IMG/VR virus record: IMGVR_UViG_3300045988_145033
Location: 1-64,000 of that record
Length of the DNA: 64,000 nt
Origin: a virus
Reading direction: 5' to 3' (one strand)
The translations under genes were made by a program, and so were the position numbers. Positions 10,003-58,900 of the stretch are shown here, in pieces. Each line of letters begins with the position of its first letter. Position 1 is the stretch's first letter. The notes below the pieces were generated by a model. It worked only from the letters and a program-made list of their open reading frames with translations. It was not told the origin of the DNA and searched no databases.

Positions 10003-10033
10003 AAAAAAAAAAATGGTGAGGATAAACCCCACC
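10003..10033 (-). terminator. intrinsic terminator ggtggggTTTATcctcacc + U-run (minus strand); same hairpin reused at 35781-35812 and 38449-38479
   Basis: stem has a G.U wobble only when read on the minus strand, supporting orientation. Confidence 0.7.
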
Positions 10034-10865: not shown

Positions 10866-10901
10866 TAAAAAAAAAAAAATAAAGGCTAGGAAAACCTAGC
10901 C
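10866..10901 (-). terminator. intrinsic terminator ggctaggTTTTcctagcc + 14-nt U-run; identical hairpin at 36591-36623
   Basis: perfect 7-bp stem, long T-run on transcribed strand. Confidence 0.75.
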
Positions 10902-10909
10902 AATATCTT

Positions 10910-11614: not shown

Positions 11615-11690
11615 TTCCTCCTAAATGTTTTTAAAATTAAATTTTGGCTTCTCCCCATTGGATTGCCTTTATCTTAGTATATAATATATG
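11615..11690 (-). promoter_or_regulatory. early-type box + family B conserved leader (AAGGCAATCCAATGGGGAGAAGCCAAAATTTAATTTTAAAAACATTTAGGAGG)
   Basis: about 75-nt element repeated at 36492-36563 and 37205-37280 with only 4-5 substitutions. Confidence 0.55.
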
Positions 11691-11721
11691 TATTAAATTA
11701 TAAATGATGTAAGGATAGTAG

Positions 11722-11751
11722 AAAAAAAAAAATGTGGGAGTTATCCCACAT
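11722..11751 (-). terminator. intrinsic terminator atgtgggaTAACtcccacat + 11-nt U-run
   Basis: hairpin overlaps stop codon of gene 11751..11987. Confidence 0.7.
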
Positions 11752-15748: not shown

Positions 15749-15838
15749 GGTTATTCCTCCTTAGTATTCTTAAGTTTACCTTTGTCTTCTTCTATTACAA
15801 TATATAATCAAAAAAAAAAACTAGCAGGAACATTCAAA

Positions 15839-24446: not shown

Positions 24447-26204
24447 TTAATATTCTTCTGATTTATCTTGAGGAACTATTACTGTATTCTCTGTAACTTG
24501 TACAGCGTTGCCTTTATCTAGTTCTTCTGAAGGATTACATTTACCTGAAACTACGTCAATTCCTGTAAGTTTAAAGTTACCTTTGCTGTCTTCATATCCT
24601 CTTGGAGCTAAGTTTAAATCTCCACTTTCTAAACCTTTTTCTATTTCTTTTAGATTATTCGGAATAGTTTTAGTTATAGCTTCCTTTACTTCTTCTGTAG
24701 AATAATCTTTTATTTTGATATTTGCAAGTTTTTCATATTCTTCTACTATAGCTTCGTCTACATTAAAGTCTATAGCATTTATAACTTCGTCTAATTTCTT
24801 AGCAAATGCTTCCCAAGTAACAGACGTTATTTCTAAAAATCCACTAAATATAACTTCTATTCCTCTTAAGAAATCAGGGATGTGTAAAAGTCTATCTATG
24901 AATAATAAAGTTATAATAGAAGCTATGCACATTTTAGTATTAAGTTTAACTTTAGATACTTTCTTTATTTCTTCTTCTCCTTTATCGTTATAAACCTTTT
25001 CTTCCATTTCTACTTTGTCTCCATAGTTACATACAATTCTATCGTGTAGCTCTTTTATAGACGGTACAGCAATTTTAATATATGTATCTAAGTATCCATC
25101 AAATGTATCAGCGATAGGAGTTACTAAATCTATACCGTCCTTTTCAACTGGTACATTTCTATTGAATTTCTTAAATCTTCTTAAGATAGGAGTAAGAGTT
25201 TCTTTTCTCAAATCATTTACTATATACTTTTGAGCTGTGTCTAAAAGTTTAAGTAAAGTATCAGCATCTTTTATAGATTGTATATTTGTATCTACTCCTT
25301 CGACATTGAAGTTTTCTTTTGATAAATCAAGAATTTTTATTTGTCCCTCTAGTATAGCGTGAGCTATATCTACAGTATTTGCAAGGTCATATCCGTTCCA
25401 TATAAATATGAATTGAGATGCAAGACCTTCTATTCCTGATTGTATATCTTCTAAAGCAATAAGTTTTTCTCTTACTAAGTATAGAGCTAAATTAATTAGT
25501 TTACTTATTTCTAGTGTAGTTTTAAAATGTCCATTTTCGTCCATATATATGTCAAATGGTTCATCAGCATACTCTTTATTTAAAAGCTCAAGATGATGCT
25601 GAACGTCAGGAGCATCATATATAGCTTTCTTTTCTTCATCTGTCTTACCTTCAGTTATAGTAAGTCCTGTGAATACTTTAGCTTCTATGATTCTATATAC
25701 GTCAGCCATAGTTAGAGCTACTTCATTTTTATCACATTCAGTTTGATTTCCTAAATAGAACAACACTTCTACAAGTTTCCTCATTTTTGGAATTATTGAA
25801 TTTTCATGTTCTTTTTGTATAGATTTAATAGCTTTATAGTTTGAATATAAAGTCTTAAGTCCAGAGTTATCCATTTCTGCTGGAGTTTCAAACTCAGAAG
25901 TTGCAAGTCTTATTAAATCTACGAATACATAGTTTGCCTTTCTTTTAGCAAGTTTTCTATCGTATTCTAAAGAGCTTTTACTCATAGCAAGAATAGCGTT
26001 AGTGTCTACTATACATAGTTTTCTTTCTACGTCTATTTTTACATCGTATGCTTCTTTTTCTTTTTTCTCTGCTGTAAGTTTATTTATCTTATCATTCGCA
26101 TTATCTATAGTAGTTGCCCACATAAGTGGTCCTATTCCAACCTTCTTTCTCCATTCAATCATTTTTTGTTTATCAAAGTTCTTTGTGTCAATTTTCTTAC
26201 TCAT
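24447..26204 (-). CDS. hypothetical protein (585 aa); N-terminal KLCIVDTNAILA segment faintly PIN/FEN-like
   Basis: long ORF; motif resemblance weak. Confidence 0.6.
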   Translation of the reverse strand: MSKKIDTKNFDKQKMIEWRKKVGIGPLMWATTIDNANDKINKLTAEKKEKEAYDVKIDVERKLCIVDTNAILAMSKSSLEYDRKLAKRKANYVFVDLIRLATSEFETPAEMDNSGLKTLYSNYKAIKSIQKEHENSIIPKMRKLVEVLFYLGNQTECDKNEVALTMADVYRIIEAKVFTGLTITEGKTDEEKKAIYDAPDVQHHLELLNKEYADEPFDIYMDENGHFKTTLEISKLINLALYLVREKLIALEDIQSGIEGLASQFIFIWNGYDLANTVDIAHAILEGQIKILDLSKENFNVEGVDTNIQSIKDADTLLKLLDTAQKYIVNDLRKETLTPILRRFKKFNRNVPVEKDGIDLVTPIADTFDGYLDTYIKIAVPSIKELHDRIVCNYGDKVEMEEKVYNDKGEEEIKKVSKVKLNTKMCIASIITLLFIDRLLHIPDFLRGIEVIFSGFLEITSVTWEAFAKKLDEVINAIDFNVDEAIVEEYEKLANIKIKDYSTEEVKEAITKTIPNNLKEIEKGLESGDLNLAPRGYEDSKGNFKLTGIDVVSGKCNPSEELDKGNAVQVTENTVIVPQDKSEEY

Positions 26205-29660: not shown

Positions 29661-31514
29661 TTATTCTTCTTCTCTAAACTCATCTAAACCATCATCATCA
29701 ATTTCTTCAGCGTGTTCATTATCATAAATTGAGTTTACCCATTCTGTAGCTGATTCTATGAAGTCTTCGCTGTACATATCATTTTCTGGTTTATTTGGAT
29801 TAGTAACTATATTAATTAGTATATCATATATTAGTTGTCCTTCTTCCTCATCGCTTACTGAGTTTTCGTCCATTTTAGACACTTCCCCATTTCCCACAAA
29901 TAGTATATCAGGATTTACAAGAACGAACGCTTCATAGTTATTATCATATGTAGGTTTACCATATTTCTTTATAAATGGTATTAATTTCTTATTTGCTCTA
30001 TCAATATACCATAGATTTTCTATATCTTCTTTTACAATTTCTTCTTCTCCATCAACCTTAGTAAAATCTACTACATTTGGTGCAGTTTCTACTTTCGGTT
30101 CTCCAGCTGATGTATTGAATACTCTCATTATTTCATCACCGAATGGAGTTCCTAACTTTTCTCCAGTTGCTGTATTGTGAGTATACGCTTCTTTAGGGAA
30201 GATTGTATCATTTATTCTTTTCATATCATCAGCTTTCATAGGTTCAGCATACATCTTGCCGTCTTCCCCTTTAACCATTCTAACGCTTCCGCCTCTTAGG
30301 TTATGTGCATCTTTTGCTACATCATTTAGAGCAAACATTGCAGGTATTCCTTCTATTGGTGAAGGTGTATCAGCTGACGCTGTAAGTGTAGCTTTAGAGA
30401 AATCTGGCTTCTTATTTAGAACTCCTTTATCTCCAGCTTTCTTTAAAGTTACTGTAGGCTTTCCATTCTTACCAAATGTACTAACTGGTTTTTCTTCTTT
30501 CTTTTCCTCTTTAAGTTTTGCACCTTCTGGTATAAGAGAAGACTCAGGTGATTTAGCAAATTCAGCTACTTGTCTTTTCATTTCAGTAATAGCTGGGTCT
30601 TCCCCTTCTTTATTCTCAGCTTCTATTTCTTCCTTAGTAGGAGCATTTACTATCTTGACTTCAACTTCCTTACCGTCTATGAAAGTTTTAGTTTTACCAT
30701 CAGTTTGAATAATACCAGCAAGTCTTTCTAATTCTTCATCTGACATAGCATTTACTTCTTCAGCTGTATATTTCTTAGATTTAATTAAAGTCTTTTTCTT
30801 TTCTAGTTCCTCAGCTGATTTCATAGCACGAGCTACTACATCATCTGCAAGAAGTGCACCGTTTTCATCTTCTTCATAATCCCCACCAAGTTTAGCTATA
30901 TCACTTTCGTTTATAGTATATGGTCTTCCATTAACTCTAACGTCTGAGTTCTCGCCTTCTTTTGTAGGGTGGAACATGGAAGCTACTTTTTCTAAATCTG
31001 CTTTTGTATTAGCTTCGTTATTTAGTTCTATTACAACTTTTCTTAATGAGCTTATAAACTCGTCTAATCTCTTTATAAGATTGTATAAATCTACACCCCA
31101 AGTTCTACCACATTCTAATTCGCTCTTTTCATCAAATGTGTCACAAGCTAGCATATAATTTAGTAGGTTTATGCTACCATTATATAGAGAAGTCTCTACT
31201 GAATTTTCATTCATTGTATCCATATCTATTACTTTGTATTCATCATCGCTACAAGTTATCTTAAATTTACCTGTATCTAAAATACCATTAGGTCCTATTA
31301 TTAATAGATTAGATTTTTTAATTCTTTTCTTTTCATCTTCTTGTATCGCCAAGAAACTGCTTCCGTTACTCTTTATAAATCTATCACAAGCTATATCTGT
31401 AATAAAAGATACAACTGTGTGAAGATGCTCATTTATCTTATTTCTTTTCACAAGTTTTTCTTTACTGCTTTCTAAAAAGTTCATATATTCATTTACATTA
31501 TTTATTAAGTTCAT
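29661..31514 (-). CDS. hypothetical protein (about 617 aa; ATG 31514 behind AAAGGAGG RBS)
   Basis: long ORF; no GHKL/Toprim motifs. Confidence 0.6.
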   Translation of the reverse strand: MNLINNVNEYMNFLESSKEKLVKRNKINEHLHTVVSFITDIACDRFIKSNGSSFLAIQEDEKKRIKKSNLLIIGPNGILDTGKFKITCSDDEYKVIDMDTMNENSVETSLYNGSINLLNYMLACDTFDEKSELECGRTWGVDLYNLIKRLDEFISSLRKVVIELNNEANTKADLEKVASMFHPTKEGENSDVRVNGRPYTINESDIAKLGGDYEEDENGALLADDVVARAMKSAEELEKKKTLIKSKKYTAEEVNAMSDEELERLAGIIQTDGKTKTFIDGKEVEVKIVNAPTKEEIEAENKEGEDPAITEMKRQVAEFAKSPESSLIPEGAKLKEEKKEEKPVSTFGKNGKPTVTLKKAGDKGVLNKKPDFSKATLTASADTPSPIEGIPAMFALNDVAKDAHNLRGGSVRMVKGEDGKMYAEPMKADDMKRINDTIFPKEAYTHNTATGEKLGTPFGDEIMRVFNTSAGEPKVETAPNVVDFTKVDGEEEIVKEDIENLWYIDRANKKLIPFIKKYGKPTYDNNYEAFVLVNPDILFVGNGEVSKMDENSVSDEEEGQLIYDILINIVTNPNKPENDMYSEDFIESATEWVNSIYDNEHAEEIDDDGLDEFREEE

Positions 31515-32046
31515 TTTCAAATGCCTCCTTTATAATAGTTACTCCAAAAATATTAAGATTATGTATTCTTTCTTGTAAGTCAAACAATTCTTCTCCGAAC
31601 AATAACCCATTTTTCATACCATTTTTACCTATACTCGTTTTATACACATAATCGCAGAAAGCTATTGCACCTTTATGCTCAAGCTCATCTTGATGTGCTA
31701 AACCACCACTTAAATATAAAACTGTATATAATCCAGTCTTATCGACTTTAATATGTTTATTCATAAATACATCTTTAGGTCCTAGCAGTACAAGAGTTAT
31801 ATTACTATTCTTTTCATCGTCACGAATATTTATAATACTATTTCCACCACTTTCTAAATGCTTCTTAGCTAGTATATTTGTAAGAATATTCTGTATAGCT
31901 CTCATTCTAAATCCTAGAGTATCTTCCTTTACATACTTGTCTCTATTCCTTTCTACATCTTCAACTTTCTCTCTCAAGTTCTCAATAGTGTGTCCTTTTA
32001 TTAAAGATTCACCGTTATTAACTTTTCTTTTTGCTTTTCTACCCAT
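31498..32046 (-). CDS. hypothetical protein (182 aa)
   Basis: ORF; 17-nt overlap with downstream gene. Confidence 0.6.
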   Translation of the reverse strand: MGRKAKRKVNNGESLIKGHTIENLREKVEDVERNRDKYVKEDTLGFRMRAIQNILTNILAKKHLESGGNSIINIRDDEKNSNITLVLLGPKDVFMNKHIKVDKTGLYTVLYLSGGLAHQDELEHKGAIAFCDYVYKTSIGKNGMKNGLLFGEELFDLQERIHNLNIFGVTIIKEAFENELNK

Positions 32047-32118
32047 TTTCTTCCTCCTTAAAATTTTAAATATATTGGGTAGGTTTCCCTACCCAATTCT
32101 TAGTTTATAATATATAAG
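32047..32118 (-). promoter_or_regulatory. promoter-like box TTATATATTATAAAC followed by leader hairpin ttgggtaggGAAAcctacccaa and extended RBS
   Basis: unusual order box-hairpin-RBS (elsewhere hairpin precedes box). Confidence 0.35.
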
Positions 32119-33200: not shown

Positions 33201-33538
33201 AGAATATCACCTCTTATTGATTGTGTATAATATTCTCTTAATATTTCTGAATCGCTTTTACCATCGTCCTTTCTACCTTGCTTAAGTTCTTCTATTAAAT
33301 CTTTATGAATAACTCTTACTATATCATCTTCTATTGTAGGTGGTCTAAATACCACCTCATCTTTCTTGGGTTCTTTATACCCAATATATTCCTTTACAGC
33401 TTCCCCTTGTTCTATCCATTTTTGAGCAAGTTCACCTTCAGGGTGTGTTATGAATTCCATTATATTTTCTTCATTTTCTACCATAAATTTATTTATCAAA
33501 CTCATTACTAATTTATTACTCATTTCTGTTACCTCCAT
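33197..33538 (-). CDS. hypothetical protein (113 aa)
   Basis: ORF. Confidence 0.55.
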   Translation of the reverse strand: MEVTEMSNKLVMSLINKFMVENEENIMEFITHPEGELAQKWIEQGEAVKEYIGYKEPKKDEVVFRPPTIEDDIVRVIHKDLIEELKQGRKDDGKSDSEILREYYTQSIRGDIL

Positions 33539-35444
33539 TTTTCTTATTATCTTCTTCTATTTCCTTTTTGTATTTTTCTTCATAAGCTTTCTTGTATGCT
33601 TCATGGTTACTTCTATCGGCATATAATACATCATAGTTCATATGTGATACAGGTTTAAAGTTATCAGGAGATGTCATAACCTCATCAAAGTATCCATAAC
33701 ATAACTTATTTACTATTCCTGTATTATTAACTATACCCTTTTTGTATCCTACAAATGTATAAGACTCATCATCTCTTAAATCTCTTGACCAATCAGGCTT
33801 ATACATTTCTTTGTCTTTATTAGTCACAAATAGACAGTTCTTTAATACAGTTTCTCCAACTATGTATGGAGATTTTAAAAGCTTATTAAGTTCAGCTACT
33901 GGGTCTTTAAACTTAGCTGGATTTTCAAATATAGCCTTTATTTCATTGTATACTTTAGACTTTCTTTTGTTCTTATATACAACGTGCAAGAAGTTATCAT
34001 CTCTTAGCTCAAGTACACCGTCAGTTTCTACAGGGTACACCATTCCATTTACTTCTACGTCAAATCCGTTATAGCATACTCTTTGACTGTCTTTTCTTGG
34101 GTCATCTATTCTATACTTTTCATTTATCACAATAGTACCATTACAGTATATAATATCTGTGTGCTTAACTTGGACATCGATAGTATTATCGTGTCTAAAT
34201 ATTATATTTTCTATAATAGTTATCATATTGTGCTTAGATGATAGATAGTTTTGACCCTCTGGTGCAATGTACTGCTTTACAAACTGAACTCCTAAATTCA
34301 TATTAGCACCAAGTGGTCCTTTTACATTATCAAAATATGTATGCTCTCCTGTACAGTATCTACATATACCTTCTTTAGAATTACAAGTAAAAGGACTTCT
34401 AACCTTAATAGTTTTCCCAATTAAGTCAGTTCTATCTTTAGTTATAAGCTCGATATCTCTTGGGTGATTACTGTCGTGTATCATATATCTATCATTTAGC
34501 TTATCAAGAACTTCTTGTGATTCTACAAAGTATTCTACATATGCTTTTGAATCACACATATAATCTGGATTAGGATTTAAGTAGTTTGGATTGTTAAGAT
34601 ATGATATAGTCTTTTGAAATGCACCCGGGTCTTTTATCTCAAGTTTAGTTATTATAGTTGCACATCTTGAGATATATGATTCATAATAGAAGCTCTCAGG
34701 TGTTGATATTCCACGAAGCCAAGACTCTTTCTCTATATTAGGTATAACTTCATCTTGGTCGGGACGAGAACCTATCATAAACAGACAGTCAACAAACTGT
34801 GCAAGACGAAGTCCAGTTCCTGCTTTTACAAGAGAACGCAAAGGTTGTATATCTTTTTCTTCGACTACTTTTGATATGTAATCAAGTGTGTGCTTTTTAA
34901 GTTCTTCCACTTCAAATAAACTCATATCGTCTCTTTTAACTGGACCGTTTATAATCCAGTCTTTAAGGGTTTCATCAGCATCACAAAGTTCAAATATATC
35001 AAGCATTGATATATCTATCATCTTTTTATTATCGACTACCCAAGCAAACTGAACAAACGCTTCTTTTATTTCACCTACGATAGATGCTACGTCAAAGAAC
35101 TTCATATTCATTCTATTAAAGCACTCATCTTTCACCATTTCCACATATTCATTTTGACTATCAACATTACCAGAACCCGTGAATATAAAATCCTCAAGTC
35201 TTTGCTCTTGTCCGTCGAGTATATGGTGCTTATCAAGAGTTGTAAATAAAAGCCAGTTCATAATAGCTTTAGCAAACTTCATTTTAGCTATCTTCTCACC
35301 TTTATAAGTTACAGTAACTCTAGTTTCAAGCTTTCCTATATCCCAGTAATCATCAACAAACAACTTTGGTGAAAACTCTGCAATAAGTGGTAAACCTAGT
35401 TCATTTACCTTACTCCAGACATCTGCCATTACTTCATTCTTCAT
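33516..35444 (-). CDS. multisubunit RNA polymerase beta'-like subunit, C-terminal fragment (bridge-helix and trigger-loop region) - split phage RNAP subunit
   Basis: KVRSPFTCNSKEGICRYCTG matches RpoC VRSVVSCDTDFGVCAHCYG; TPESFYYESYISR aligns with bridge-helix TALKTANSGYLTR; no NADFDGD motif, so N-terminal half is elsewhere. Confidence 0.55.
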   Translation of the reverse strand: MKNEVMADVWSKVNELGLPLIAEFSPKLFVDDYWDIGKLETRVTVTYKGEKIAKMKFAKAIMNWLLFTTLDKHHILDGQEQRLEDFIFTGSGNVDSQNEYVEMVKDECFNRMNMKFFDVASIVGEIKEAFVQFAWVVDNKKMIDISMLDIFELCDADETLKDWIINGPVKRDDMSLFEVEELKKHTLDYISKVVEEKDIQPLRSLVKAGTGLRLAQFVDCLFMIGSRPDQDEVIPNIEKESWLRGISTPESFYYESYISRCATIITKLEIKDPGAFQKTISYLNNPNYLNPNPDYMCDSKAYVEYFVESQEVLDKLNDRYMIHDSNHPRDIELITKDRTDLIGKTIKVRSPFTCNSKEGICRYCTGEHTYFDNVKGPLGANMNLGVQFVKQYIAPEGQNYLSSKHNMITIIENIIFRHDNTIDVQVKHTDIIYCNGTIVINEKYRIDDPRKDSQRVCYNGFDVEVNGMVYPVETDGVLELRDDNFLHVVYKNKRKSKVYNEIKAIFENPAKFKDPVAELNKLLKSPYIVGETVLKNCLFVTNKDKEMYKPDWSRDLRDDESYTFVGYKKGIVNNTGIVNKLCYGYFDEVMTSPDNFKPVSHMNYDVLYADRSNHEAYKKAYEEKYKKEIEEDNKKNGGNRNE

Positions 35445-35697
35445 TTGAATCCTCCCAATTATTAAATATTACTCTTTTTATAATCTTACTAAGCTTTTGA
35501 TTAAAAGCCTTTTTAACAAGATTATTCTCCGATAGAAGCTCTTTTCTATACTTTACAAAAGCTTCTCTTTCATATTCAGACTCCTCAGCCTGAATATCCT
35601 TCCAATCTTTCATAAACTCATCATAATCCTTTTCAATATCAAGGTTCATAATTCTCTCATTGAATTTCCTTACAATTTCTTTAGTTACTTTCTTCAT
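35434..35697 (-). CDS. hypothetical protein (87 aa)
   Basis: first ORF of early-type unit, promoter box 35742-35756. Confidence 0.5.
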   Translation of the reverse strand: MKKVTKEIVRKFNERIMNLDIEKDYDEFMKDWKDIQAEESEYEREAFVKYRKELLSENNLVKKAFNQKLSKIIKRVIFNNWEDSNEE

Positions 35698-35780
35698 TTT
35701 AATTCCTCCTTAAAATTTGTATTATTTAATCGTTTGCTACATTTATAATATATATGTCAAATATTGTTATTTTGGAACAT

Positions 35781-35812
35781 AAAAAAAAATAAAGGTGAGG
35801 ATAAACCCCACC
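35781..35812 (-). terminator. intrinsic terminator ggtggggTTTATcctcacc + U-run (copy 2)
   Basis: identical to 10015-10033. Confidence 0.7.
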
Positions 35813-36479: not shown

Positions 36480-36491
36480 AATTAAAACCTC

Positions 36492-36563
36492 CTAAGTTTT
36501 ATTAAAATTAAATTATGGCTTCTCCCCGTTGGATTGCCTTATCTACGAATATAATATATAAAC
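36492..36563 (-). promoter_or_regulatory. early-type box + family B leader (copy 2)
   Basis: see 11615-11690. Confidence 0.55.
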
Positions 36564-36590: not shown

Positions 36591-36623
36591 TAAAAAAAAA
36601 ATAAAGGCTAGGAAAACCTAGCC
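36591..36623 (-). terminator. intrinsic terminator ggctaggTTTTcctagcc + U-run (copy 2)
   Basis: identical to 10884-10901. Confidence 0.75.
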
Positions 36624-37197: not shown

Positions 37198-37204
37198 TTC
37201 TAAA

Positions 37205-37280
37205 ACCTCCTAAAGTTTTTAAATTAAATTATGGCTTCTCCCCATTGGATTGCCTTTGTCTTAGTATATAATATATAAAC
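37205..37280 (-). promoter_or_regulatory. early-type box + family B leader (copy 3)
   Basis: see 11615-11690. Confidence 0.55.
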
Positions 37281-37309
37281 AAAAAAAAAAATACTGTAAG
37301 AATAATAAA

Positions 37310-37349
37310 TAAAAAAAAAAAATAAGAGGACGGGCGTAGCAAACCCGTC
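37310..37349 (-). terminator. intrinsic terminator gacgggTTTGCTACGcccgtc + 15-nt U-run
   Basis: hairpin + T-run on minus strand. Confidence 0.7.
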
Positions 37350-37359
37350 GTTATTTATA

Positions 37360-38112
37360 TTAGAAGATTTCGAAACCACCTTTCCAGTAGTTTCTAGTCC
37401 CTATCTTAAGAGTAGGAAACTCTTCCTTTATCGCTTGTGCGATATGAGTAACATCGTCCATTTCGGGCACGGGGAAATCACACCCTTGGACTTTATTATA
37501 CTTTCTAAGCGTCCAGAATACATTATCGAACTTAGATATGACACTTGCGATTTCTCTAAGTTCGTCAAGGCTTGTGTCTCCGAATACTGGAGTTCTTATA
37601 TCAACTAAAACTCCATTTTCTTGACACAATTTAATAATTCTTTCTTGGTCCATAACTGGTTTGGCAACTCCAGTTATTTTAACCAATCTGTCACTATAGA
37701 ATGCCTTGAAATCTATAGCAACATAGTCTAGGTATTTTACTAGACTTTTAACTAGCCCATAACTGCTACCATTATGAGCTATTGATATTTTTTGTCCAAA
37801 TTTGTTCATTACATATTGGGCTATATGTAATGATTCAGAAGGATAAGCCGCGGGGTCTCCCCCGCTTAATCTAATCCTTCTTCCTTTAGAAGCTTCAATA
37901 TCTATCAAAGCTTCTAAGTCACTCATTTTAATGTCGTGAGTGTTGATGACGTTGCCAGCATCATCGTAGAATTGACAGTCCCTTTTACAGTAAGGACAAC
38001 TGTAATTACAATCACCAAAAGAAACGATTGCCATTTCTTCTGGTGTTCTATTGAATGCTTGTAGGAAGTAAGCCTTTCTCACTTCCAAATTTTTTCTTTT
38101 AATTAATTTCAT
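37360..38112 (-). CDS. radical SAM activating enzyme, NrdG-like (anaerobic ribonucleotide reductase / glycyl-radical enzyme activase family)
   Basis: CNYSCPYC (CxxxCxxC) cluster and RIRLSGGDPAAYP matching NrdG GISLSGGDPLHP. Confidence 0.6.
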   Translation of the reverse strand: MKLIKRKNLEVRKAYFLQAFNRTPEEMAIVSFGDCNYSCPYCKRDCQFYDDAGNVINTHDIKMSDLEALIDIEASKGRRIRLSGGDPAAYPSESLHIAQYVMNKFGQKISIAHNGSSYGLVKSLVKYLDYVAIDFKAFYSDRLVKITGVAKPVMDQERIIKLCQENGVLVDIRTPVFGDTSLDELREIASVISKFDNVFWTLRKYNKVQGCDFPVPEMDDVTHIAQAIKEEFPTLKIGTRNYWKGGFEIF

Positions 38113-38119
38113 TTTGTTA

Positions 38120-38204
38120 CCTCCTCAGGTATATTAAATTTAGACGGTGAGCTCTTAAGCCTTCTTAAGTTTACTCTTGTCCCTACATTTATTATATATA
38201 ATTG
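38120..38204 (-). promoter_or_regulatory. early-type box + family C conserved leader containing hairpin CUUAAGAAGGCUUAAG
   Basis: homologous about 85-nt element at 51075-51160 with compensatory C/G swap in hairpin closing pair. Confidence 0.55.
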
Positions 38205-38307: not shown

Positions 38308-38376
38308 TTAAAGCCTAGTAATTGTCCAAATTGCCGCTATGGCGTAAGCCGCCAACATTAATACTAATGCGAACAT
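38308..38376 (-). CDS. 22-aa hydrophobic micropeptide MFALVLMLAAYAIAAIWTITRL with own promoter, RBS and terminator
   Basis: AAAGGAGGTGCCAT-ATG RBS, early-type box 38419-38438, terminator downstream. Confidence 0.45.
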   Translation of the reverse strand: MFALVLMLAAYAIAAIWTITRL

Positions 38377-38448
38377 ATGGCACCTCCTTTAAATTATCCC
38401 GGTGGAACTTTCATTCCGTGGGTTCTACATTTATTATATATAATTAAA

Positions 38449-38479
38449 ATAAAAAATAAAGGTGAGGATAAACCCCACC
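38449..38479 (-). terminator. intrinsic terminator ggtggggTTTATcctcacc + U-run (copy 3)
   Basis: identical to 10015-10033. Confidence 0.7.
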
Positions 38480-39756: not shown

Positions 39757-39784
39757 ATATCTAAATAAGGGGGTTTTGGTAAAA

Positions 39785-42001
39785 ATGGAACTTAAAAATA
39801 CATATACATCTCAGATAGCTGAGATATTTAAAAGTAAAGAAACTTTAAAAGAAAACTGGATAAAATCAATAAAAAATAAGATAAGACTTGATGATATTAA
39901 ATCGCAAGAGTTATCAAGTATTTTTGATAAAGCATTCAAAGAAACTCGTATACAATATACAAACTCAGTACAAGGAAAGACAAGAACTCTAGGTGCACTA
40001 GAGTTTATTTATAATACATATAAAGACGAAAAGATACTTGTAGAAAACGGAGTAATATTTCGTAACTCAAGAGAAGTATTTGCTCCTACTGTGGAGTCTG
40101 AGATATATCTTTTCAAAAGAAGAAAGACAGTTAAGAAATTAGGTAACTATTGGCTTACAGAAGGGAATGACCCAATAGTTGGAGCGATATATGATAACTT
40201 GCAAAAGAATATAAAGATACTTATGAATACGTACTATGGGGTACTCACAAATCCATATTCGAGATTTTACAATAGAGATTTAGGAGATAGTATTACTATG
40301 CGTGGACGTTCATCTATATCAGTATCAGCTCTTTCTATGGAAGGAGCATTTGCTAAGAAGATACCACAAGAAACTGAAGCACTTCTTGCTTATTTTGATA
40401 GATGCTCGAAATCTCAGATAGATAAAGATATAATGTGTGATATGAGTTTTCTATATATGAATATTATGAAAGATAAAGATGAAATAGAAGAACTTTTAAA
40501 AGAGTTTCATTTAGAAAATCATTACGACAGAGAGCTTCTTGTAAGAATACTATGTGAATATACTACTCAAGATAGATGTAAGATATACTTTAAAAATAAC
40601 TTTAAAAGAATATCAGAACTTCACATATTTAAAAAGAATGTAATAGATTTCATGAAAGATAGTATAGAACTTAAGACACCGTTTCTTGACCCTAATGAAA
40701 TACCATTTGATAATGCTAAGGGTTATATAGAAGATTTAAGAAGAATAGTGTCTCAAGGACTTACAGGAATGTATTGGTATGGTGGAGATTATATCCAAGA
40801 AAGAGAGATACTTGTTAAGAACTCACAAGATGTAATACAAAGTATAGATAGAAAGGTTATACCGGTAATAGACACGGACTCTAACTTCTTATCTTATGAA
40901 ACTGAATATAATATATTATATGATATACTTAAAAATTCTATATCTTGTATGCCAGCAAAAGATGATGACAATACTTTCTACACTATATCTAATATATGTG
41001 CTATTGTGATGACAGAGGTTATAGATAGTGCTCTTGCGAGATATAAGACTTATGTAAATATACTTCCTGAGAAGAATGGTTGCTTGAAATTAAAGAATGA
41101 ATTTTTATATTTAAAACTTCTTATAACTTCAAGAAAGAAAAACTATATAGGACTTATATCATTAAAAGAGGGTAAACCTTATCCTAAACCTAAACTAGAT
41201 GTAAAAGGATTGGTATTTAAGAAATCGTCAGTAAACTCAAATATCGGTGAAGAGGTTGAATCTATTGTATCTAAACTTCTAAAAGATGATACTCTTAATA
41301 TAAATGATATACTTGCAAGAACTAGAGCAACTACAAATATGATACTAGATGCTCATAAAAACCAAAAGCTTTTAGATTACTGTGTAGCACTAAAGCTTAA
41401 GACTAAACTTGAAGAAACTGATATATCTGATTATAGATGCAAAATGGTAACTTTATGGAATGCTCTTGCTGAAAACGAAAGAGATATAATTATAACACCT
41501 GCAACTTTTTACTCTATTCCTATAAAGATTACAGATAAGTTTAGAAATAAATACCCAGAAATATATGGAAAAATTAAAGCGTGGCTTGACGAACGAAACA
41601 CAATTTTGATTAAAACTCAGATAAATGAGATACTTTCGGACTCTAAGAATAAGAAGTTTCGATTCCTTTCCTTTATGGACCAAAACTTTGACTTGTCTAC
41701 TATAGACTCAGCAGACTCGTGGGTACAAATGCGAAAAGACGCAATGAAACTTAAAAGAGATAAAGGTATAAAGATGCCTTCCGAAGATGTATCTTACTGG
41801 AGTGAAGACGATATATCAAAGATAGCATACCCTATAACGTCAGAAGTAGTTCCAGAATTTATCTTAGATTTAGTGAACGCCGACAATTCATTAGTTCTTG
41901 TCAATTCCCTTTTAGCACCTGTAATTCAAGAGCTTCATGTTTTATGTCCAAGAAATAGTGATGGTAAAAGACTTGTAACTAATATTGTCGAAAGATACTA
42001 G
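39785..42001 (+). CDS. family B DNA polymerase, C-terminal portion only (motifs B, C and KKRY; motif A and exonuclease domain absent)
   Basis: KILMNTYYGVLTNPYSRFY (KxxxNSxYG), VIPVIDTDSNF (YGDTDS-like), SRKKNYIGL (KKRY); ATG 39785 behind AAGGGGG; ORF track TTG 39776 less likely. Confidence 0.7.
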   Translation: MELKNTYTSQIAEIFKSKETLKENWIKSIKNKIRLDDIKSQELSSIFDKAFKETRIQYTNSVQGKTRTLGALEFIYNTYKDEKILVENGVIFRNSREVFAPTVESEIYLFKRRKTVKKLGNYWLTEGNDPIVGAIYDNLQKNIKILMNTYYGVLTNPYSRFYNRDLGDSITMRGRSSISVSALSMEGAFAKKIPQETEALLAYFDRCSKSQIDKDIMCDMSFLYMNIMKDKDEIEELLKEFHLENHYDRELLVRILCEYTTQDRCKIYFKNNFKRISELHIFKKNVIDFMKDSIELKTPFLDPNEIPFDNAKGYIEDLRRIVSQGLTGMYWYGGDYIQEREILVKNSQDVIQSIDRKVIPVIDTDSNFLSYETEYNILYDILKNSISCMPAKDDDNTFYTISNICAIVMTEVIDSALARYKTYVNILPEKNGCLKLKNEFLYLKLLITSRKKNYIGLISLKEGKPYPKPKLDVKGLVFKKSSVNSNIGEEVESIVSKLLKDDTLNINDILARTRATTNMILDAHKNQKLLDYCVALKLKTKLEETDISDYRCKMVTLWNALAENERDIIITPATFYSIPIKITDKFRNKYPEIYGKIKAWLDERNTILIKTQINEILSDSKNKKFRFLSFMDQNFDLSTIDSADSWVQMRKDAMKLKRDKGIKMPSEDVSYWSEDDISKIAYPITSEVVPEFILDLVNADNSLVLVNSLLAPVIQELHVLCPRNSDGKRLVTNIVERY

Positions 42002-43973: not shown

Positions 43974-43992
43974 ATAAATGGAGGTGAACTTA

Positions 43993-44748
43993 ATGGTTAC
44001 TAATGAAGAATATGAACATAAAGCACATTATAATACTATGGATTTTTATACAAAAGCTGATGCGGCTCATATGGGAGACCATGTAGAGCTTGTAAAGCAA
44101 AGAGCTCTTGATATGTATAATTGGTTAAAGGAAAAGAAAGGAATAGAAGCTGACCTCAAATGTGTAATACTTGCGGCTTCATTTCATGATACAGGTTCTG
44201 CTATACAAAGAGAAGACCATAATGTAATATCTTATAACTTATTTAAAGCTGGTAAATTAACTGACGGTATTGAGCTTACAGATGATGAAAAGATTATTAT
44301 AGCAAATGCTATACTTCAGCATTCGTCTCATTTTAAAGGAAACTATTATTCTATAGAAGCTGAGATAGTAGCATCAGCTGATAGAGATGAACCTGACATA
44401 TATGCGATACTTTCTCGTAGTGTAGACTATGCTAGAAAACATAATCCAGATGATATAATAGATAGTGTAGCTGAATATAATATCAAAAGATATGCTAGTT
44501 TTCCGAGCTCTGACTATAGAGTTCCTGATTGGCACTTCGAGTATTGGAATGATATAATGCCGAATTGTTTTACATATATTAATAAATTTTTCCAAAACGA
44601 AGATATAGTTAAAAAGGTTGTGAATTCTATAGCAGACGATAATACTGAAAGATATGTACGAGAGATGATAGATAGCTATATACACAGTGATACTAAACCA
44701 AATTTATTCTCCGAAAGTGTATTCAGGAGATTTAAAGGAGAGATGTAA
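43993..44748 (+). CDS. HD-domain metal-dependent phosphohydrolase (252 aa)
   Basis: H..HD..H..D pattern (AAHMGDH, ASFHDTGS, LQHSSH, ASADRDE); start 43993 behind GGAGGTG. Confidence 0.55.
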   Translation: MVTNEEYEHKAHYNTMDFYTKADAAHMGDHVELVKQRALDMYNWLKEKKGIEADLKCVILAASFHDTGSAIQREDHNVISYNLFKAGKLTDGIELTDDEKIIIANAILQHSSHFKGNYYSIEAEIVASADRDEPDIYAILSRSVDYARKHNPDDIIDSVAEYNIKRYASFPSSDYRVPDWHFEYWNDIMPNCFTYINKFFQNEDIVKKVVNSIADDNTERYVREMIDSYIHSDTKPNLFSESVFRRFKGEM

Positions 44749-46512: not shown

Positions 46513-48426
46513 TTATAATTGTCCGTTTTTAAAGCTTTCTACATCGTATTGGTCCGGCATAGTTATTTGGTTAGTACCAAGTAGTGCTATAACTGCTCCA
46601 GTTGCCGCATCAAGTATTTTCTTTTCAGCGTCAATAGAGTTAAGTACCTTAAATGTAGTTATGTCTTTTAAAGTGCAAGTTTCACCTTTATATAACTTAT
46701 CAAGTAACACTCTTAAATCAAATGATTCTCTTATAATAAGTTTAGGGTCTTTATCTTCCATTCTATCAAAGTATTCGTTAAGTTGAGACGTTTCGTGGTT
46801 TTCAGATTCATACACTGCTTCGGTTAGATTAAATCCTACACTTTCAAATAGTATTTCTACTAAGTGAATATAAGCCATATTGATTCTATTAGCTATAGCT
46901 CTTTTTATCTTATCCATTGAATTTCCTGTCATTTTATATTTTAGATATACTTCTAAATAAGTTTTAGGAATTATAGTAGACATACCACCACAAACTCCTG
47001 AAGCTACAGCTGATTTTATAGCTCCTACCGCATCATCAACAGCTCCTAGTTTTCTATCTACTTCCCAAGAGTTATCAGCTCCAACTACTATTTCAGCATA
47101 CTTTCCATTTATTCTTCTTATTCTTGCTTTTATAGCATCAGCTCTTCCTTTATCATCTTTTACAAGAGCTAATTCTTCTTCAAGCTCTTTTACGTGTCCC
47201 TCGGCTCTTACTTTATCAAAACCAAATAAAGTAACTTGAGTTTTACTCATAATAGCATCTACTGGATTTATTGCTCCAACTTTTAATAGATTTTCTACAT
47301 ATGAAGAAACTGTGAAATCTAACTCTTCTTCTGTAAATTCTTCTATATTATCAGGGAATATATCTCTAAGTTTCTTATCAAGTTCATATGCTTGTGGTTG
47401 TCCTATCAAATATTCAAAGTCTTTATGTTCTTCTTGCGATAGTATTGTTCCAGTATAAGCATACTCGAGTATATAGATAGGTAAGAAGTCTACATTATAT
47501 TTAGTCTTATACCAATTTCTAACTTGTAGTATTTCTCTTTCAACTACATCTTTATATTGAAGATTATAAGTTATAAATACAACTGGAGACATATTTTCAA
47601 TACCAACACCGTGACCATTCATAAACTCTATCATATTATAAGCAACTTTAGCATATAGTTTCATAAGAGCTCTTATACTATCAGCCGATGCAATATTATT
47701 ATCAACTATAACTGGTATTATCTTCTTTCTTAAAACTGCTTTAGGAAATCCTAAAGGTCCTTGTTGTATAGTATATCCTTCTTTTACAGAATAGTTAGTT
47801 TTAGCTTGAGTTCCGTCTGCTTTATAAGTTACAGAGATATTAGATAAGTCTTCTCCGTCTCTTGTAATCTCTTTTAAAGCTCCTATTAAAGCATCTTTAA
47901 GTTCTGTATCATTATTTACAGAAGTTTCTATAATACCTATTAAATCACTTAAATCAGCTTGAGCAAACACTTTATGGTCGTCCATTTCTTTTTTGAAAGA
48001 TTCCACTACATCTTTAATTAAATCATTAAAGAATTGTGCTGGTAAGTTACTTTTATCTCTAAGCTCAGCTAAAGACTTATATAAATCAGCTATAAGTATT
48101 GTAGTAGTTGTAGTACCGTCTCCAGCTGTTGATAGAACTCCTAGCATAGATGATAATACAAGTTGCTTTAAAGCTTGTGCTACAGGGTGAAAGTATTTAG
48201 TTTTAGATAAAAGAGTATATCCGTCTTTTGTAATAGATGCAAGCACTGCACCATTATCTCCTGATTTTTGTATCATAAGAGTTGAAGCACCTATTGGACC
48301 ATAACTCTTTTTAACTACATCTGCCATATCATCAAGTATATGAGATATGTGCTCACTATTCATCACTGTGTGATTTGTCTCCAAAAGTATTTTCTTCGGT
48401 TGTTCCACTTTCTCTGTCATGTTCAT
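46513..48426 (-). CDS. GroEL-like chaperonin (phage-encoded, 637 aa)
   Basis: AGDGTTTTTILIADL (GroEL GDGTTTATVLA), DDAVGAIKSAVASGVCGGMS (GroEL DALxATRAAVEEGxVxGGG); RBS AAGGAGGA. Confidence 0.75.
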   Translation of the reverse strand: MNMTEKVEQPKKILLETNHTVMNSEHISHILDDMADVVKKSYGPIGASTLMIQKSGDNGAVLASITKDGYTLLSKTKYFHPVAQALKQLVLSSMLGVLSTAGDGTTTTTILIADLYKSLAELRDKSNLPAQFFNDLIKDVVESFKKEMDDHKVFAQADLSDLIGIIETSVNNDTELKDALIGALKEITRDGEDLSNISVTYKADGTQAKTNYSVKEGYTIQQGPLGFPKAVLRKKIIPVIVDNNIASADSIRALMKLYAKVAYNMIEFMNGHGVGIENMSPVVFITYNLQYKDVVEREILQVRNWYKTKYNVDFLPIYILEYAYTGTILSQEEHKDFEYLIGQPQAYELDKKLRDIFPDNIEEFTEEELDFTVSSYVENLLKVGAINPVDAIMSKTQVTLFGFDKVRAEGHVKELEEELALVKDDKGRADAIKARIRRINGKYAEIVVGADNSWEVDRKLGAVDDAVGAIKSAVASGVCGGMSTIIPKTYLEVYLKYKMTGNSMDKIKRAIANRINMAYIHLVEILFESVGFNLTEAVYESENHETSQLNEYFDRMEDKDPKLIIRESFDLRVLLDKLYKGETCTLKDITTFKVLNSIDAEKKILDAATGAVIALLGTNQITMPDQYDVESFKNGQL

Positions 48427-51074: not shown

Positions 51075-51160
51075 CCTCCTTAAGGTATTAAATTAAGACT
51101 GTAAGCTCTTAACCCTTGTTAAGTTTACTCTTGTCTTCTACTATTATTATATATAATTGA
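51075..51160 (-). promoter_or_regulatory. early-type box + family C leader (copy 2, hairpin CUUAACAAGGGUUAAG)
   Basis: see 38120-38204. Confidence 0.55.
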
Positions 51161-55945: not shown

Positions 55946-58900
55946 TTATATAGATTTTCCTTTACAAATTCTATCAATAAGTTTATAAAAGTCATCATTA
56001 GAATTCATACCAGAACTTCCCATTGTAACTGGAGTAGGGTTACCATTGACCGTAGTCATTACATTGTATCCATTTAGTGCAAGATTTGTCTTCTTACCAG
56101 TTACAGCTTCTATGAATGTAGCAAATAGCTTATTCATATTACGTAACTCTCCTAAAATAGCTTCAAGTAATTTAGTTTCACCATTTTGTTCCATACCTTG
56201 AGAACGATTTATGAATTTTACCAAGTTTTCATTTATTTCATTTAAAATACCAGTCTGAGTTTGACTATGTTTTGCTGATGCTTGTATACCAGCTTTTATC
56301 TTATCTGTAGATAAAGCAATAGAGTTTGATGATTTAGCAACACCATCATCACTACCTTTTCCAGATAAGTTCATAGTCTTTGTATATTGCTCTGCCGCAT
56401 TATATGTCATATCACGAGATACACGTCCATATCCTGCAAGAACTGGCTCAACCACTTTTTCTTTAAATGTACCATAAGCTCCTTTTATGATATCTACCAT
56501 AGAAGCAGTTTTCTTTGCAAGTTTTACAGATGCTTTTTCTTTGTATATCAAAATTGCTTTTGCCATACGAAGACGTTTGTCATTTACTGAAACTTGCTCA
56601 GATGAGTTCTTTTCCGGGTCATTTATATAAATCTTACCATTTACCATCTCTTTACCTATTATGAAATGTGGTGCACCAGTTGATGATACTGTAAGAAGTA
56701 TAGGAGAACGTCCGGCACGTAGTTCACTTACAAATCTTGCAAGTACCTTATCATTAAATATAACAGAACGTATTTTATGCTCAGCTAGTATATTTACGAA
56801 ATACTTCATAGGCGTACCAGCTTTAGGTGATGATTTCATAGCAACAGCTTTACGTACTAAATCTTCCATATTGTATCTTATCTTTAACTTATCAAGAAGC
56901 ATAGCCATAACAGCAGGACCACAACCAGCTTCTCTAAATCTAAGTCCTCCACCCATTCCAAGTTTATTCCACTTTCCTGAGTTTTGTGATACGTGTTTCA
57001 TAGGTCCAAAACCTTCGTTACCAGCTTTTAATCCTTCTTGTTGCTTTGCTGACGTTTTAACTTTTTGAGTTACGCTATATGGGTCAAAGGCATCAACAAC
57101 ATATCCGTCAAACCCCATAAATTGTGCTGCTTCTTTTGTAGACGGATATTTAGATGCTGAGAAATTAGCAACTTCTCTTCCTCTTACGTGTCCATCTCCA
57201 TCTTTGTCCATTCCGTGATTTGCTTTATATTCCGCTGAACCACGCGAATAAACTGGCTTATCTGGATGATATCCTAAAGACTTAGGATAATGTAAGTAAG
57301 AATATAAGTTATATAGGTTAGGAGGATATTTACCCAAGCCTTTTATCCATCTAGGTCCAACTCTTTTTAATTGCTCAAGTGGCGTGAAACTTCCCGGAAG
57401 TTCATTAGGTGCAAACCCCCAACCTTTTCTGTAACTCTTCATTACTTGGAAAAGTCCAGATGCTCCACCGTTACTATTATATGCGTCAGGTTGCCAAGTT
57501 GACTCAGAATAAGATACAGCTAACATATTTCTCGCAACATCTACTCCCCATTGAGAAACAGCATAATCCCACATTTCTTTCATTTGCTTCCTATATTGTG
57601 GGTTCTTAGCTTTTTGCATAAGCCCCATATTCTTAGTGACTCCAGTTATAACATTTCCACCACTAAAATCTCCTGAACTTGAATCTTCTGCTACAACATT
57701 GCCGTTTTCATCTAGGTTAAATCCTAAAGATGTTGCTAAATTTTTCACAGTAGCACCTATATCGAAGTTTTTGATAAATTCATATCTATCTCCAAATTTA
57801 GAAGCATTGTCATCATCTATCATAGCTTGCATATCAGATTTAGCTTTTGTAGCTTCTTGAGTTGTTGTATCAACTTTTGTAAGCTTACCGTCTGGAGTTA
57901 CAGGTCCAAATCCTTGATAAGCTCCATATCCGTCACTATCAGTTTTATATTTATCATACAACTTACTATTCTTTTTAGCTATGTCTTCTTTTTCTTTTTT
58001 ATCTTTCTCTTCTTGTTGCTTTTTAAGTTTTTCTTGATTTTCTTTTCTCTTCTTTGCATCTTCGTCACGTTTCTTCCAATAATCTGGGTCTTTTAAATCA
58101 TAATCGCTATCAGCATCTGGGTCATATCCATAATCAGTCTTATCAACATCACCATTTGCTTCTTCTTCACGCTTAGCTTTATATTCTTCATATTTGCTCT
58201 TACCCCATTCTTTTAATTCTTCTTCTTCTCTCTTCTTAGCTTCTTCTTTATCACTTTCTTCTTTATTAAAAGCTTCTAGTGCTTCTTTTGATTTCCATTC
58301 GGATTCATCAACACCAGATACCCATTCGTAGAACCACACAACCATATCATCTATAGGGATAGCAGCAAGCCACCATACTTTAGATGATGCTAGTCCCCAT
58401 AATAGTTCCACAAAACCTGATGCAAATTTCATACCAGTAGTTATGTAATCAGAACCTACGTTGAAATAATCTCTTGCGTGTCTCCAACCATGAATAAAAT
58501 CATATATTGCAAATATTCCGTCTACTATAGCTCCTACTGGTGGTAATGCGTAAGATGCAGAACGAGTAACATTTTTAGCTGTCTTCTTAGCGGCTTTCTT
58601 TGCAGCCTTTTTACTCATCTTTTTAGCAACAACTTCTATTCCGCCTTTCTTTAAAAGTTTTTCAGCAAATGCTTTAGTAAGCTTATAATTAAGAAGTTTT
58701 CTTAACATCTTTTCTATAAACTCTTTAAACCATTTACCAATAGCGGTTTCTGTTATTTGCTTTACTCCACGTTCAGCCAGATTTTGAGCACCTTTTCTAA
58801 ACGCTTCGTTTTTAAATAAACCATTTTTAGCTATTCTAAGTCCAGTTTGTTGAATATTATGAGTTACAGTTTCTCCAGTTCTTCCAGTAGAGTTTATAAA

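Follow-up and report, generated by a model that had tools for sequence, protein, structure and literature searches.

Phages of the AR9/phiKZ family carry two multisubunit RNA polymerases (RNAPs), one packaged in the virion and one non-virion, and these jumbo-phage enzymes contain neither alpha nor omega subunits. Their beta' chain is split at a site that coincides with the gamma/beta' (RpoC1/RpoC2) split of cyanobacteria (PMC7598289), and crystal and cryo-electron microscopy structures of such split subunits are already available. The gene considered here lies in a 64,000-nucleotide (nt) stretch of viral DNA, positions 1 to 64,000 of IMG/VR record IMGVR_UViG_3300045988_145033, which is referred to below as the window. 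It is an open reading frame (ORF) of 642 codons on the minus strand at 33516-35444, with an ATG start and an end coordinate that takes in the stop codon. The product is very probably the beta'C subunit of a phage-encoded non-virion multisubunit RNAP, orthologous to AR9 gp154 and phiKZ gp74. A prediction made from the letters of the DNA, which gave the ORF correctly but without its strand, had read it as the C-terminal fragment of a split beta' subunit behind an early-type promoter. This interpretation is supported in its main respects, with two corrections: the bridge-helix motif was quoted out of register, and the promoter box stands farther from the gene.

The sequence relationships of the 642-amino-acid (aa) protein, called beta'C below, point to the AR9 non-virion enzyme. 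PHROG 3015 ("RNA polymerase beta subunit") matches it at 4.6e-27, and the top PDB sequence match is 7S00_D, the AR9 non-virion beta'C gp154 (6.2e-23, residues 144-452). The AR9 proteins were also used as phmmer queries: gp154 matches beta'C at 1.1e-25 and has no other match, whereas its virion paralogue gp264 matches gp84 of the Fusobacterium phage JD-Fnp4 at 3.3e-39 and beta'C only at 1.7e-5. This comparison with the two AR9 paralogues places beta'C in the non-virion enzyme, as had been proposed. At the level of structure, Foldseek ranks AR9 7S01_D first among PDB entries for the predicted model of beta'C (8.8e-20, ~660 aligned columns), followed by the phiKZ non-virion RNAP chain 8QUE_D (2e-10) and then by Thermus and other bacterial beta' chains. 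Homology to the C-terminal part of beta', claimed from motifs alone, is thus found again by profile, sequence and structure comparison.

AR9 gp154 (7S00, 7S01, 7UM0 and 7UM1, chain D) is the closest described relative by both sequence and structure. It has 631 residues as against 642 here. Both proteins begin at the same split point, which follows the double-psi beta-barrel, and both have the bridge helix, the site of four cysteines and the histidine of the trigger loop; the AR9 trigger loop also carries an insertion, and one is predicted for beta'C. The two proteins differ in that they are only ~26% identical over ~58% of the length, and in that the insertion domain is shorter in beta'C (~85 versus 109 residues). 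The phiKZ non-virion beta'C (8QUE and 9RJS, chain D) has the same stand-alone architecture and forms the second-best group of structural matches, but is more distant, with no phmmer match at E<=10. In bacterial RpoC (~residues 760-940) the bridge helix, the zinc site with its upstream cysteine and the first trigger-loop helix all align with beta'C, although the E-values are only 0.2-1.4.

The conserved motifs fall into the elements expected of this half of beta'. The signature VRS-x3-C-x4-G-x-C-x2-C-x-G, on which the original prediction was chiefly built, is present as KVRSPFTCNSKEGICRYCTG at residues 347-366, and the pattern [VIL]RS-x3-C-x4-G-x-C-x2-C-x-G turned up in none of 5000 shuffled versions of the protein. 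HMMER aligns KVRSPFTCNSKEGICRYCTG with the same motif of bacterial beta' chains (9N9P_D "VEVRSPLTCEAAQGICAKCYG" and 8X6F_D "IRSAFTCNARHGVCEKCYG"). Conservation was assessed in 19 aligned beta'C homologues from public metagenomes, which range from 82% down to 20% identity. Invariant among them are R349, S350, P351, C354, C361, C364 and G366, together with an upstream fourth cysteine, C297. The divergent trigger-loop motif is also confirmed: it reads APEGQNYLSSKH at residues 394-405, with Q398, L401, S402, K404 and H405 invariant, and HMMER aligns the first trigger-loop helix, which it ends, with "TDPLTQRLLSAKH" of AR9. N492, further along the chain, is invariant as well. For the bridge helix the prediction was right about the element and wrong about the register. 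The helix is present, but the quoted T-x8-Y-x2-R match, TPESFYYESYISR (residues 248-260), belongs to a pattern that arises in 5.9% of shuffles of the protein, and the bacterial T..Y..R segment aligns instead to T265..F276..K278. R260 aligns with the arginine of GARKG at the start of the bacterial bridge helix, and R260, G274 and F276 are invariant. The motif that flagged the bridge helix is therefore partly coincidental.

An AlphaFold2 model of beta'C, made from the 19-homologue alignment, contains a kinked helix at residues 249-283, a helix at 384-405, a confidently predicted beta-rich domain at ~408-492 and a helix at 495-507. The AR9 bridge helix is likewise described as split mid-way. The beta-rich domain sits between the two trigger-loop helices, as does the insertion domain of AR9 gp154 (residues 400-508; PMC9209446), and the HMMER alignment with 7S00_D extends into that AR9 domain as far as query residue 452; the likeness between the two insertions is one of position and alignment. 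The family to which beta'C belongs is large and established. When 1.84 billion cluster representatives were searched with a profile, 2551 relatives had E<=1e-3, of which 455 reached E<=1e-30, and among the 150 best profile relatives most are stand-alone proteins of ~600-790 aa.

The window derives from a JD-Fnp4-like phage of Fusobacterium nucleatum from the human mouth (JD-Fnp1/4 lineage, ~175-180 kb). The DNA of the beta'C region is 88-92% identical to phages JD-Fnp4, JD-Fnp1, JD-Fnp6 and JD-Fnp7 (174-180 kb), and an identical copy of the protein is found on a 178,673-bp human oral metagenome contig. The JD-Fnp4 homologue, JDFnp4_124, is 97.7% identical to the 642-aa protein and is named "DNA-directed RNA polymerase subunit beta'" in GenBank; an nr entry at 98% identity also carries the name beta'. 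Outside the JD-Fnp lineage the nearest annotated relatives, at 24-29% identity, come from AR9, PBS1 and jumbo phages of Staphylococcus and Listeria. The gene is hence a further member of a well-studied and structurally characterised family, already named in a near-identical record, and the gene call alone adds little. The paper describing JD-Fnp1-5, on the other hand, never mentions an RNA polymerase and reports that no related phages were found, and our literature search found no paper tying Fusobacterium phages to multisubunit phage RNAPs.

In related genomes the catalytic loop belongs to a different gene. No D-x-D-G-D or D-x-D-x-D pattern occurs in the beta'C ORF, and the proposal that beta' must be divided between at least two polypeptides is borne out, since the loop (RGDFDGD) is carried by a separate protein of 482/485 aa that matches AR9 beta'N (7S00_d). 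Beta'C alone cannot catalyse RNA synthesis because this Mg-binding loop lies on beta'N. The IMG/VR contig 3300008150_000010 (178,873 bp) contains beta'C (98% identical) at 1021-2946 and, at ~46.5 kb, a beta'N that is also 98% identical. The two genes are ~44 kb apart on one contig, and the halves of beta' are therefore separate, dispersed genes in one genome. The beta'N gene falls outside the window, as do those of the other subunits, and regular expressions for NADFDGD-like and GDK..RHGNKG-like motifs found nothing relevant within it. JD-Fnp4 encodes five RNAP-like proteins (Table 1), and the beta'N, beta'C and beta C subunits of the non-virion enzyme are easily detected.

The virion-type set of JD-Fnp4 has its own peculiarity. 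Its beta' protein, gp84, joins a catalytic loop (DGDLDGD at residue 472) and a beta'C module (PHROG 2962, residues 554-920) within a single chain of 930 aa, which means that the virion-type beta' is unbroken at the place where jumbo-phage RNAPs are commonly described as split. The module of AR9 gp264 and gp84 is paralogous to beta'C and contains the same VRS..C motif region, and gp84 occurs in the same genome as a beta'C gene.

In AR9 the early promoter has been mapped experimentally as AAATATATATTAT-(6N)-G; it is attributed to the virion RNAP and works without protein synthesis (PMC5312081). For the g154 gene, an early promoter of its own is annotated at a distance of 55 nt upstream. In the window, an AT-rich box with the same 10-nt core, TATATATTAT, as the mapped AR9 promoter and the boxes annotated in AR9 opens the beta'C unit, in agreement with the early-type character that had been suggested. 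The box is real, but it does not stand directly in front of the gene as the prediction had it. The distance downstream to the start codon is 311 nt, and an 87-aa ORF comes first, so that the order is box, 87-aa ORF, beta'C; in AR9 terms this second place in the unit is a further difference. The box at -311 is kept in five close relatives. The 18-mer TATATATTATAAATGTAG has 10 matches with <=3 mismatches in the window against 0.96 expected, and a weight-matrix scan yields ~15 sites, 14 of which lie 49-88 nt upstream of a ribosome-binding site (RBS) and start codon; in both cases all sites are on the minus strand. Every minus-strand gap upstream of beta'C is built in the same way, with a GC-rich hairpin and T-run, a box TATATA(T/A)(T/A)AT-N5-(T/A)AG, and an RBS and ATG 49-88 nt further on. 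Terminator-like sites number 18 in the window against 3.4 expected, and the hairpin that closes the unit upstream of the beta'C box recurs at 38461-38479.

The 87-aa ORF is coupled to beta'C in translation through an 11-nt overlap, and could encode an RNAP-associated factor. A family search with it gave nothing significant, only a weak RNase_E_G match below the Pfam cut-off. An ORF of equal length directly precedes beta'C in a clade at 65% identity (locus L020, 2724-2987; 23% identity, pairwise E=3e-5). Downstream of beta'C, the small ORFs are probably co-transcribed with it, as no strong predicted terminator, only weak 6-pair hairpins, is present before the early box at 32099-32116. A Pfam search of the 113-aa and 213-aa members of this group found no family.

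The box might instead be an extended -10-type promoter for the sigma-70 RNAP of the Fusobacterium host, with the identity of beta'C unchanged. It does hold TATAAT-like hexamers, the host genome is AT-rich, and the box at 35754 is abutted by TTGACA. That TTGACA, however, stands too close (~7 nt) to the -10-like hexamer, and conservation covers 10-13 nt plus an (T/A)AG at fixed spacing, with no conserved -35 element at 16-18 nt. Generic sigma-70-type sites are not enriched in the window (41 against 52.7 expected), whereas the core is identical to the early consensus attributed to the AR9 virion RNAP, and the phage encodes a second, virion-type RNAP set. Host sigma-70 use is accordingly disfavoured, and we regard it as improbable.

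The same boxes bear on the question of which phage enzyme beta'C belongs to. If it formed part of the virion-packaged RNAP that is injected and transcribes early genes, its weak similarity to gp264 and to the virion-type PHROG 2962 (2.9e-7, residues 296-370) would be accounted for. The much better match between gp264 and gp84 stands against this, as does the exclusive match of gp154 to beta'C, and the trigger-loop insertion occupies the same position as in gp154. Moreover, the beta C (gp27) and beta'N genes of the non-virion enzyme likewise stand behind early boxes in JD-Fnp4 and related phages, while the operons of gp5 and gp84 have no early box and carry AACA-N7-TA. A gp264-type identity of beta'C was rejected on these matches, and membership of the virion enzyme is very unlikely.

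Several observations weigh against the assignment to a non-virion enzyme of the AR9 type. The prediction had named the Rpb1/RpoC domain profiles as a check, and this check comes back empty: the beta'C protein matches no Pfam-A family, even at E<=10. The model is of moderate confidence, with a mean predicted local distance difference test (pLDDT) of 75 and a predicted template modelling score (pTM) of 0.50, and two stretches are poorly predicted, namely residues 260-271 within the bridge helix and residues 577-614; its TM-scores against AR9 gp154 are 0.46-0.47. The clade at 65% identity has its nearest early box on the same strand ~1.3 kb upstream, not 311 nt. Finally, no homologue of AR9 gp105 (the non-virion beta N) or gp226 (the promoter-specificity subunit) is found in the window or in JD-Fnp4. 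Searches of all their ORFs with phmmer were negative, as were hidden Markov models built from 39 gp105 and 11 gp226 homologues. PHROGs assigned no such homologue among ~30 large ORFs, and PDB and Pfam searches made no such assignment for the 585-aa ORF at 24447-26204. Queries with the first 1050 residues of the virion beta (phmmer and jackhmmer) did not reveal a non-virion beta N, nor did a regular expression for the fork-loop motif. A complete five-subunit enzyme of the AR9 type is consequently not demonstrated. It is possible that the recognition module is too diverged to be detected, that it has been replaced, or that the motif is read differently.

The empty Pfam result indicates that beta'C is very diverged from cellular beta', a kinship that is visible only through phage profiles, phmmer against PDB sequences, and structure; because these three agree, the blank is a sign of divergence and not a refutation. 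The reading of the ORF as an RNAP fragment that has decayed or been exapted, with no role left in transcription, as the Pfam blank and the two missing partners might suggest, is scarcely credible given that the zinc cysteines, the bridge-helix arginine and the trigger-loop histidine are invariant down to ~20% identity, that the protein is full length in every lineage examined and that the beta'N partner retains DFDGD.

As the beta'C subunit of the non-virion enzyme, the protein would make up one half of the active-centre cleft, the one following the double-psi beta-barrel. Its contribution would consist of the bridge helix, a zinc site of four cysteines, the trigger loop including the catalytic histidine, and a phage-specific insertion domain in that loop. 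To judge by position, residues 1-230, which precede the bridge helix, may include the secondary-channel helices, and the C-terminal part may include clamp and jaw elements. It would pair with beta'N and work with a beta C subunit that is also encoded elsewhere in the genome. By analogy with the circuit known from AR9 and phiKZ, in which the virion RNAP gives rise to the non-virion RNAP and this in turn to late gene expression, a virion-packaged RNAP (homologous to JD-Fnp4 gp5 and gp84) would enter the cell together with the DNA and fire from the TATATATTAT-N5-(T/A)AG boxes, the one at 35754 driving the 87-aa ORF and beta'C. The assembled non-virion enzyme would then transcribe later genes, structural ones included, from AACA-N6-T(A/G), and would make the late proteins, among them the virion RNAP of the next generation, whose genes have the N7 variant. 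The same analogy suggests the timing of expression, the pairing of each enzyme with its motif, the absence of beta'C from virions and the full subunit composition.

The late promoter of AR9, used by the non-virion RNAP, has the consensus AACA-(6N)-T(A/G). The AACA is read on the template strand as 3'-UUGU-5' at the gp226/gp105 interface, and deoxyuridine is required (PMC9209446). In the window, AACA-N6-TR occurs at 24 sites on both strands against 105-114 for permuted controls (ACAA, CAAA, AAAC), and in the complete JD-Fnp4 at 70 sites against 311-373. The motif is thus four- to five-fold depleted genome-wide relative to the controls, which is not the case in AR9. The remaining sites cluster upstream of genes: 9/24 in the window and 36/70 in JD-Fnp4 lie within ~75 nt upstream of an RBS and start codon, a zone that makes up 4.9% and 4.6% of the respective sequences and that holds only 4-5% of the control sites. 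A spacer scan of JD-Fnp4 peaks at N6, with 36 upstream sites as against 4-13 at other spacings. As a positive control, 100 kb of AR9 gave 12-13 upstream AACA-N6-TR sites per 50 kb against 2-4 for controls, again specific for N6. The motif is of the AR9 type, unlike the TATG-type late promoters of phiKZ.

In JD-Fnp4 these sites precede the genes for the portal, the prohead protease, the tail sheath and several virion proteins, and also the terminase operon, a DNA polymerase and a helicase; none is present in beta'C's own unit. The statistics of the early box and of the AACA motif suggest that both are used as promoters here, and both AR9 promoter classes seem to have been kept across the gap between Bacillus and Fusobacterium hosts. 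Whether a phage lineage under 200 kb that infects a human oral anaerobe has kept the whole AR9-type transcription programme, late promoter included, is more doubtful, though possible. If it had, the Fusobacterium phages might carry uracil-DNA, which would be the first case in Fusobacteriota and in the human oral virome, or the same motif might be read by a different or unrecognisably diverged recognition module; neither gp226 nor gp105, the beta N that shapes the uracil pocket, is detected in the window or JD-Fnp4. Searches with the AR9 uracil-DNA glycosylase inhibitor, dCMP deaminase and HAD nucleotidase gave no matches at E<=1e-4. An HD-domain protein and a MazG-like protein exist, and are uninformative on uracil-DNA.

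The more interesting leads concern the phage lineage and not the beta'C gene. They comprise early and late motifs of the AR9 type in a phage below 200 kb, a virion beta' that is unsplit at the usual site, and the failure to find gp105 and gp226 homologues in the window and JD-Fnp4. In comparison with AR9, the host is a Gram-negative anaerobe (Fusobacteriota) and the genome, at 175-180 kb, is under the 200-kb "jumbo" threshold. JD-Fnp1, JD-Fnp4, JD-Fnp6 and JD-Fnp7, as well as many human oral metagenome contigs (155-179 kb), belong among the phages with two multisubunit RNAPs, and could serve as a smaller-genome system for the study of such enzymes. For the development of phages against F. nucleatum, which is associated with colorectal cancer, this implies gene expression independent of the host RNAP. 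Table 1 collects the features of the window and the RNAP genes of JD-Fnp4.

Table 1. Features of the beta'C locus and its surroundings in the window, and RNAP subunit genes of phage JD-Fnp4 (ON464764).
Feature	Position	Strand	Remarks
beta'C gene, non-virion multisubunit RNAP (very probable)	33516..35444	minus	642-aa ORF; PHROG 3015, 7S00_D, AR9 gp154 phmmer, Foldseek of the model
Bridge helix, residues 249-283, kinked	34596..34700	minus	Predicted helices 249-269 and 273-283; HMMER to bacterial beta', model
Zinc-site region, C297 and VRS..C..C..C	34347..34556 (signature 347-366 = nt 34347-34406)	minus	Four invariant Cys; HMMER
Trigger-loop first helix, residues 384-405, ends in APEGQNYLSSKH	34230..34295	minus	Model helix and invariant residues
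Beta-rich trigger-loop insertion domain, ~residues 408-492	33969..34223	minus	Model strands 424-489, pLDDT 85-93
Second trigger-loop helix, residues 495-507	33924-33962	minus	Model
Early-type box TATATATTATAAATGTAG, start of beta'C unit	35737..35754	minus	311 nt upstream of the beta'C start codon
87-aa ORF, first gene of unit	35434..35697	minus	Stop overlaps beta'C start by 11 nt
Terminator hairpin GGTGGGGTTTATCCTCACC and T-run	35794..35812	minus	Closes upstream unit, just before the promoter box
Downstream small ORFs, 113/108 aa, 47 aa, 89 aa, 213 aa	32119..33538	minus	Before next early box 32099-32116
Radical-SAM activase-like protein	37360-38112	minus	Behind early box
Hydrophobic mini-ORF, 22 codons, MFALVLMLAAYAIAAIWTITRL	38308-38376	minus	Own RBS, own early box 38425-38442
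Family-B DNA polymerase catalytic subunit	39776-42001	plus	Shared with AR9 gp152
HD-domain hydrolase	43978-44748	plus	Behind late-type motif
GroEL-like chaperonin	46513-48426	minus	Shared with AR9 gp228
AACA-N6-T(A/G) sites	3240, 8560, 15839, 39745, 43962, 45274	plus	
AACA-N6-T(A/G) sites	50845, 39738, 8359, 3216, 26929	minus	
Reused intergenic cassettes	35794-35812, 38461-38479, ~10010-10030; 36606-36623, ~10885-10902		
5' leader family, three copies	11617-11732, 36488-36540, 37204-37319		Between box and RBS
Second 5' leader family, three copies	15757-15786, 38132-38181, 51086-51135		Between box and RBS
beta'N, JD-Fnp4 gp1	locus L025 2992-4449		482 aa (485 aa in full context); zinc ribbon and RGDFDGD; 7S00_d at 1e-5
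beta C, JD-Fnp4 gp27			627 aa; non-virion; 7S00_C at 6e-27
beta'C, JD-Fnp4 gp124			642 aa; homologue of the window's beta'C
Virion-type beta, JD-Fnp4 gp5	locus L002:3468-7922	minus	1484 aa, single protein
Virion-type beta', JD-Fnp4 gp84	locus L003:33950-36742	minus	930 aa

The surroundings of beta'C contain further genes shared with AR9. The DNA polymerase gene is ~4 kb away from beta'C, an arrangement reminiscent of AR9, where g152 and g154 are adjacent. The intergenic regions are built from reused cassettes, namely near-identical terminator hairpins, the early box and two conserved 5' leader families. Rfam and tRNA scans of the window were both empty, the former giving no match for the leaders. 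The hydrophobic mini-ORF is followed by a hairpin and T-run before the next box at 38183-38200.

Two proteins encoded further downstream on the minus strand, an acidic low-complexity protein of 619 aa (29661-31520) and an upstream protein of 182 aa (31498-32046), have N-terminal domains that look similar by eye and may be paralogues. Pfam matches neither of them, and PHROGs likewise gave nothing for the 619-aa protein. Near the end of the window, a giant minus-strand ORF (55946-63949) encodes more than 2667 aa and is open to the window edge. It is homologous to JD-Fnp4 gp101 (2978 aa), which is annotated as a papain-like cysteine protease and is preceded in JD-Fnp4 by an AACA-N6-TG site.

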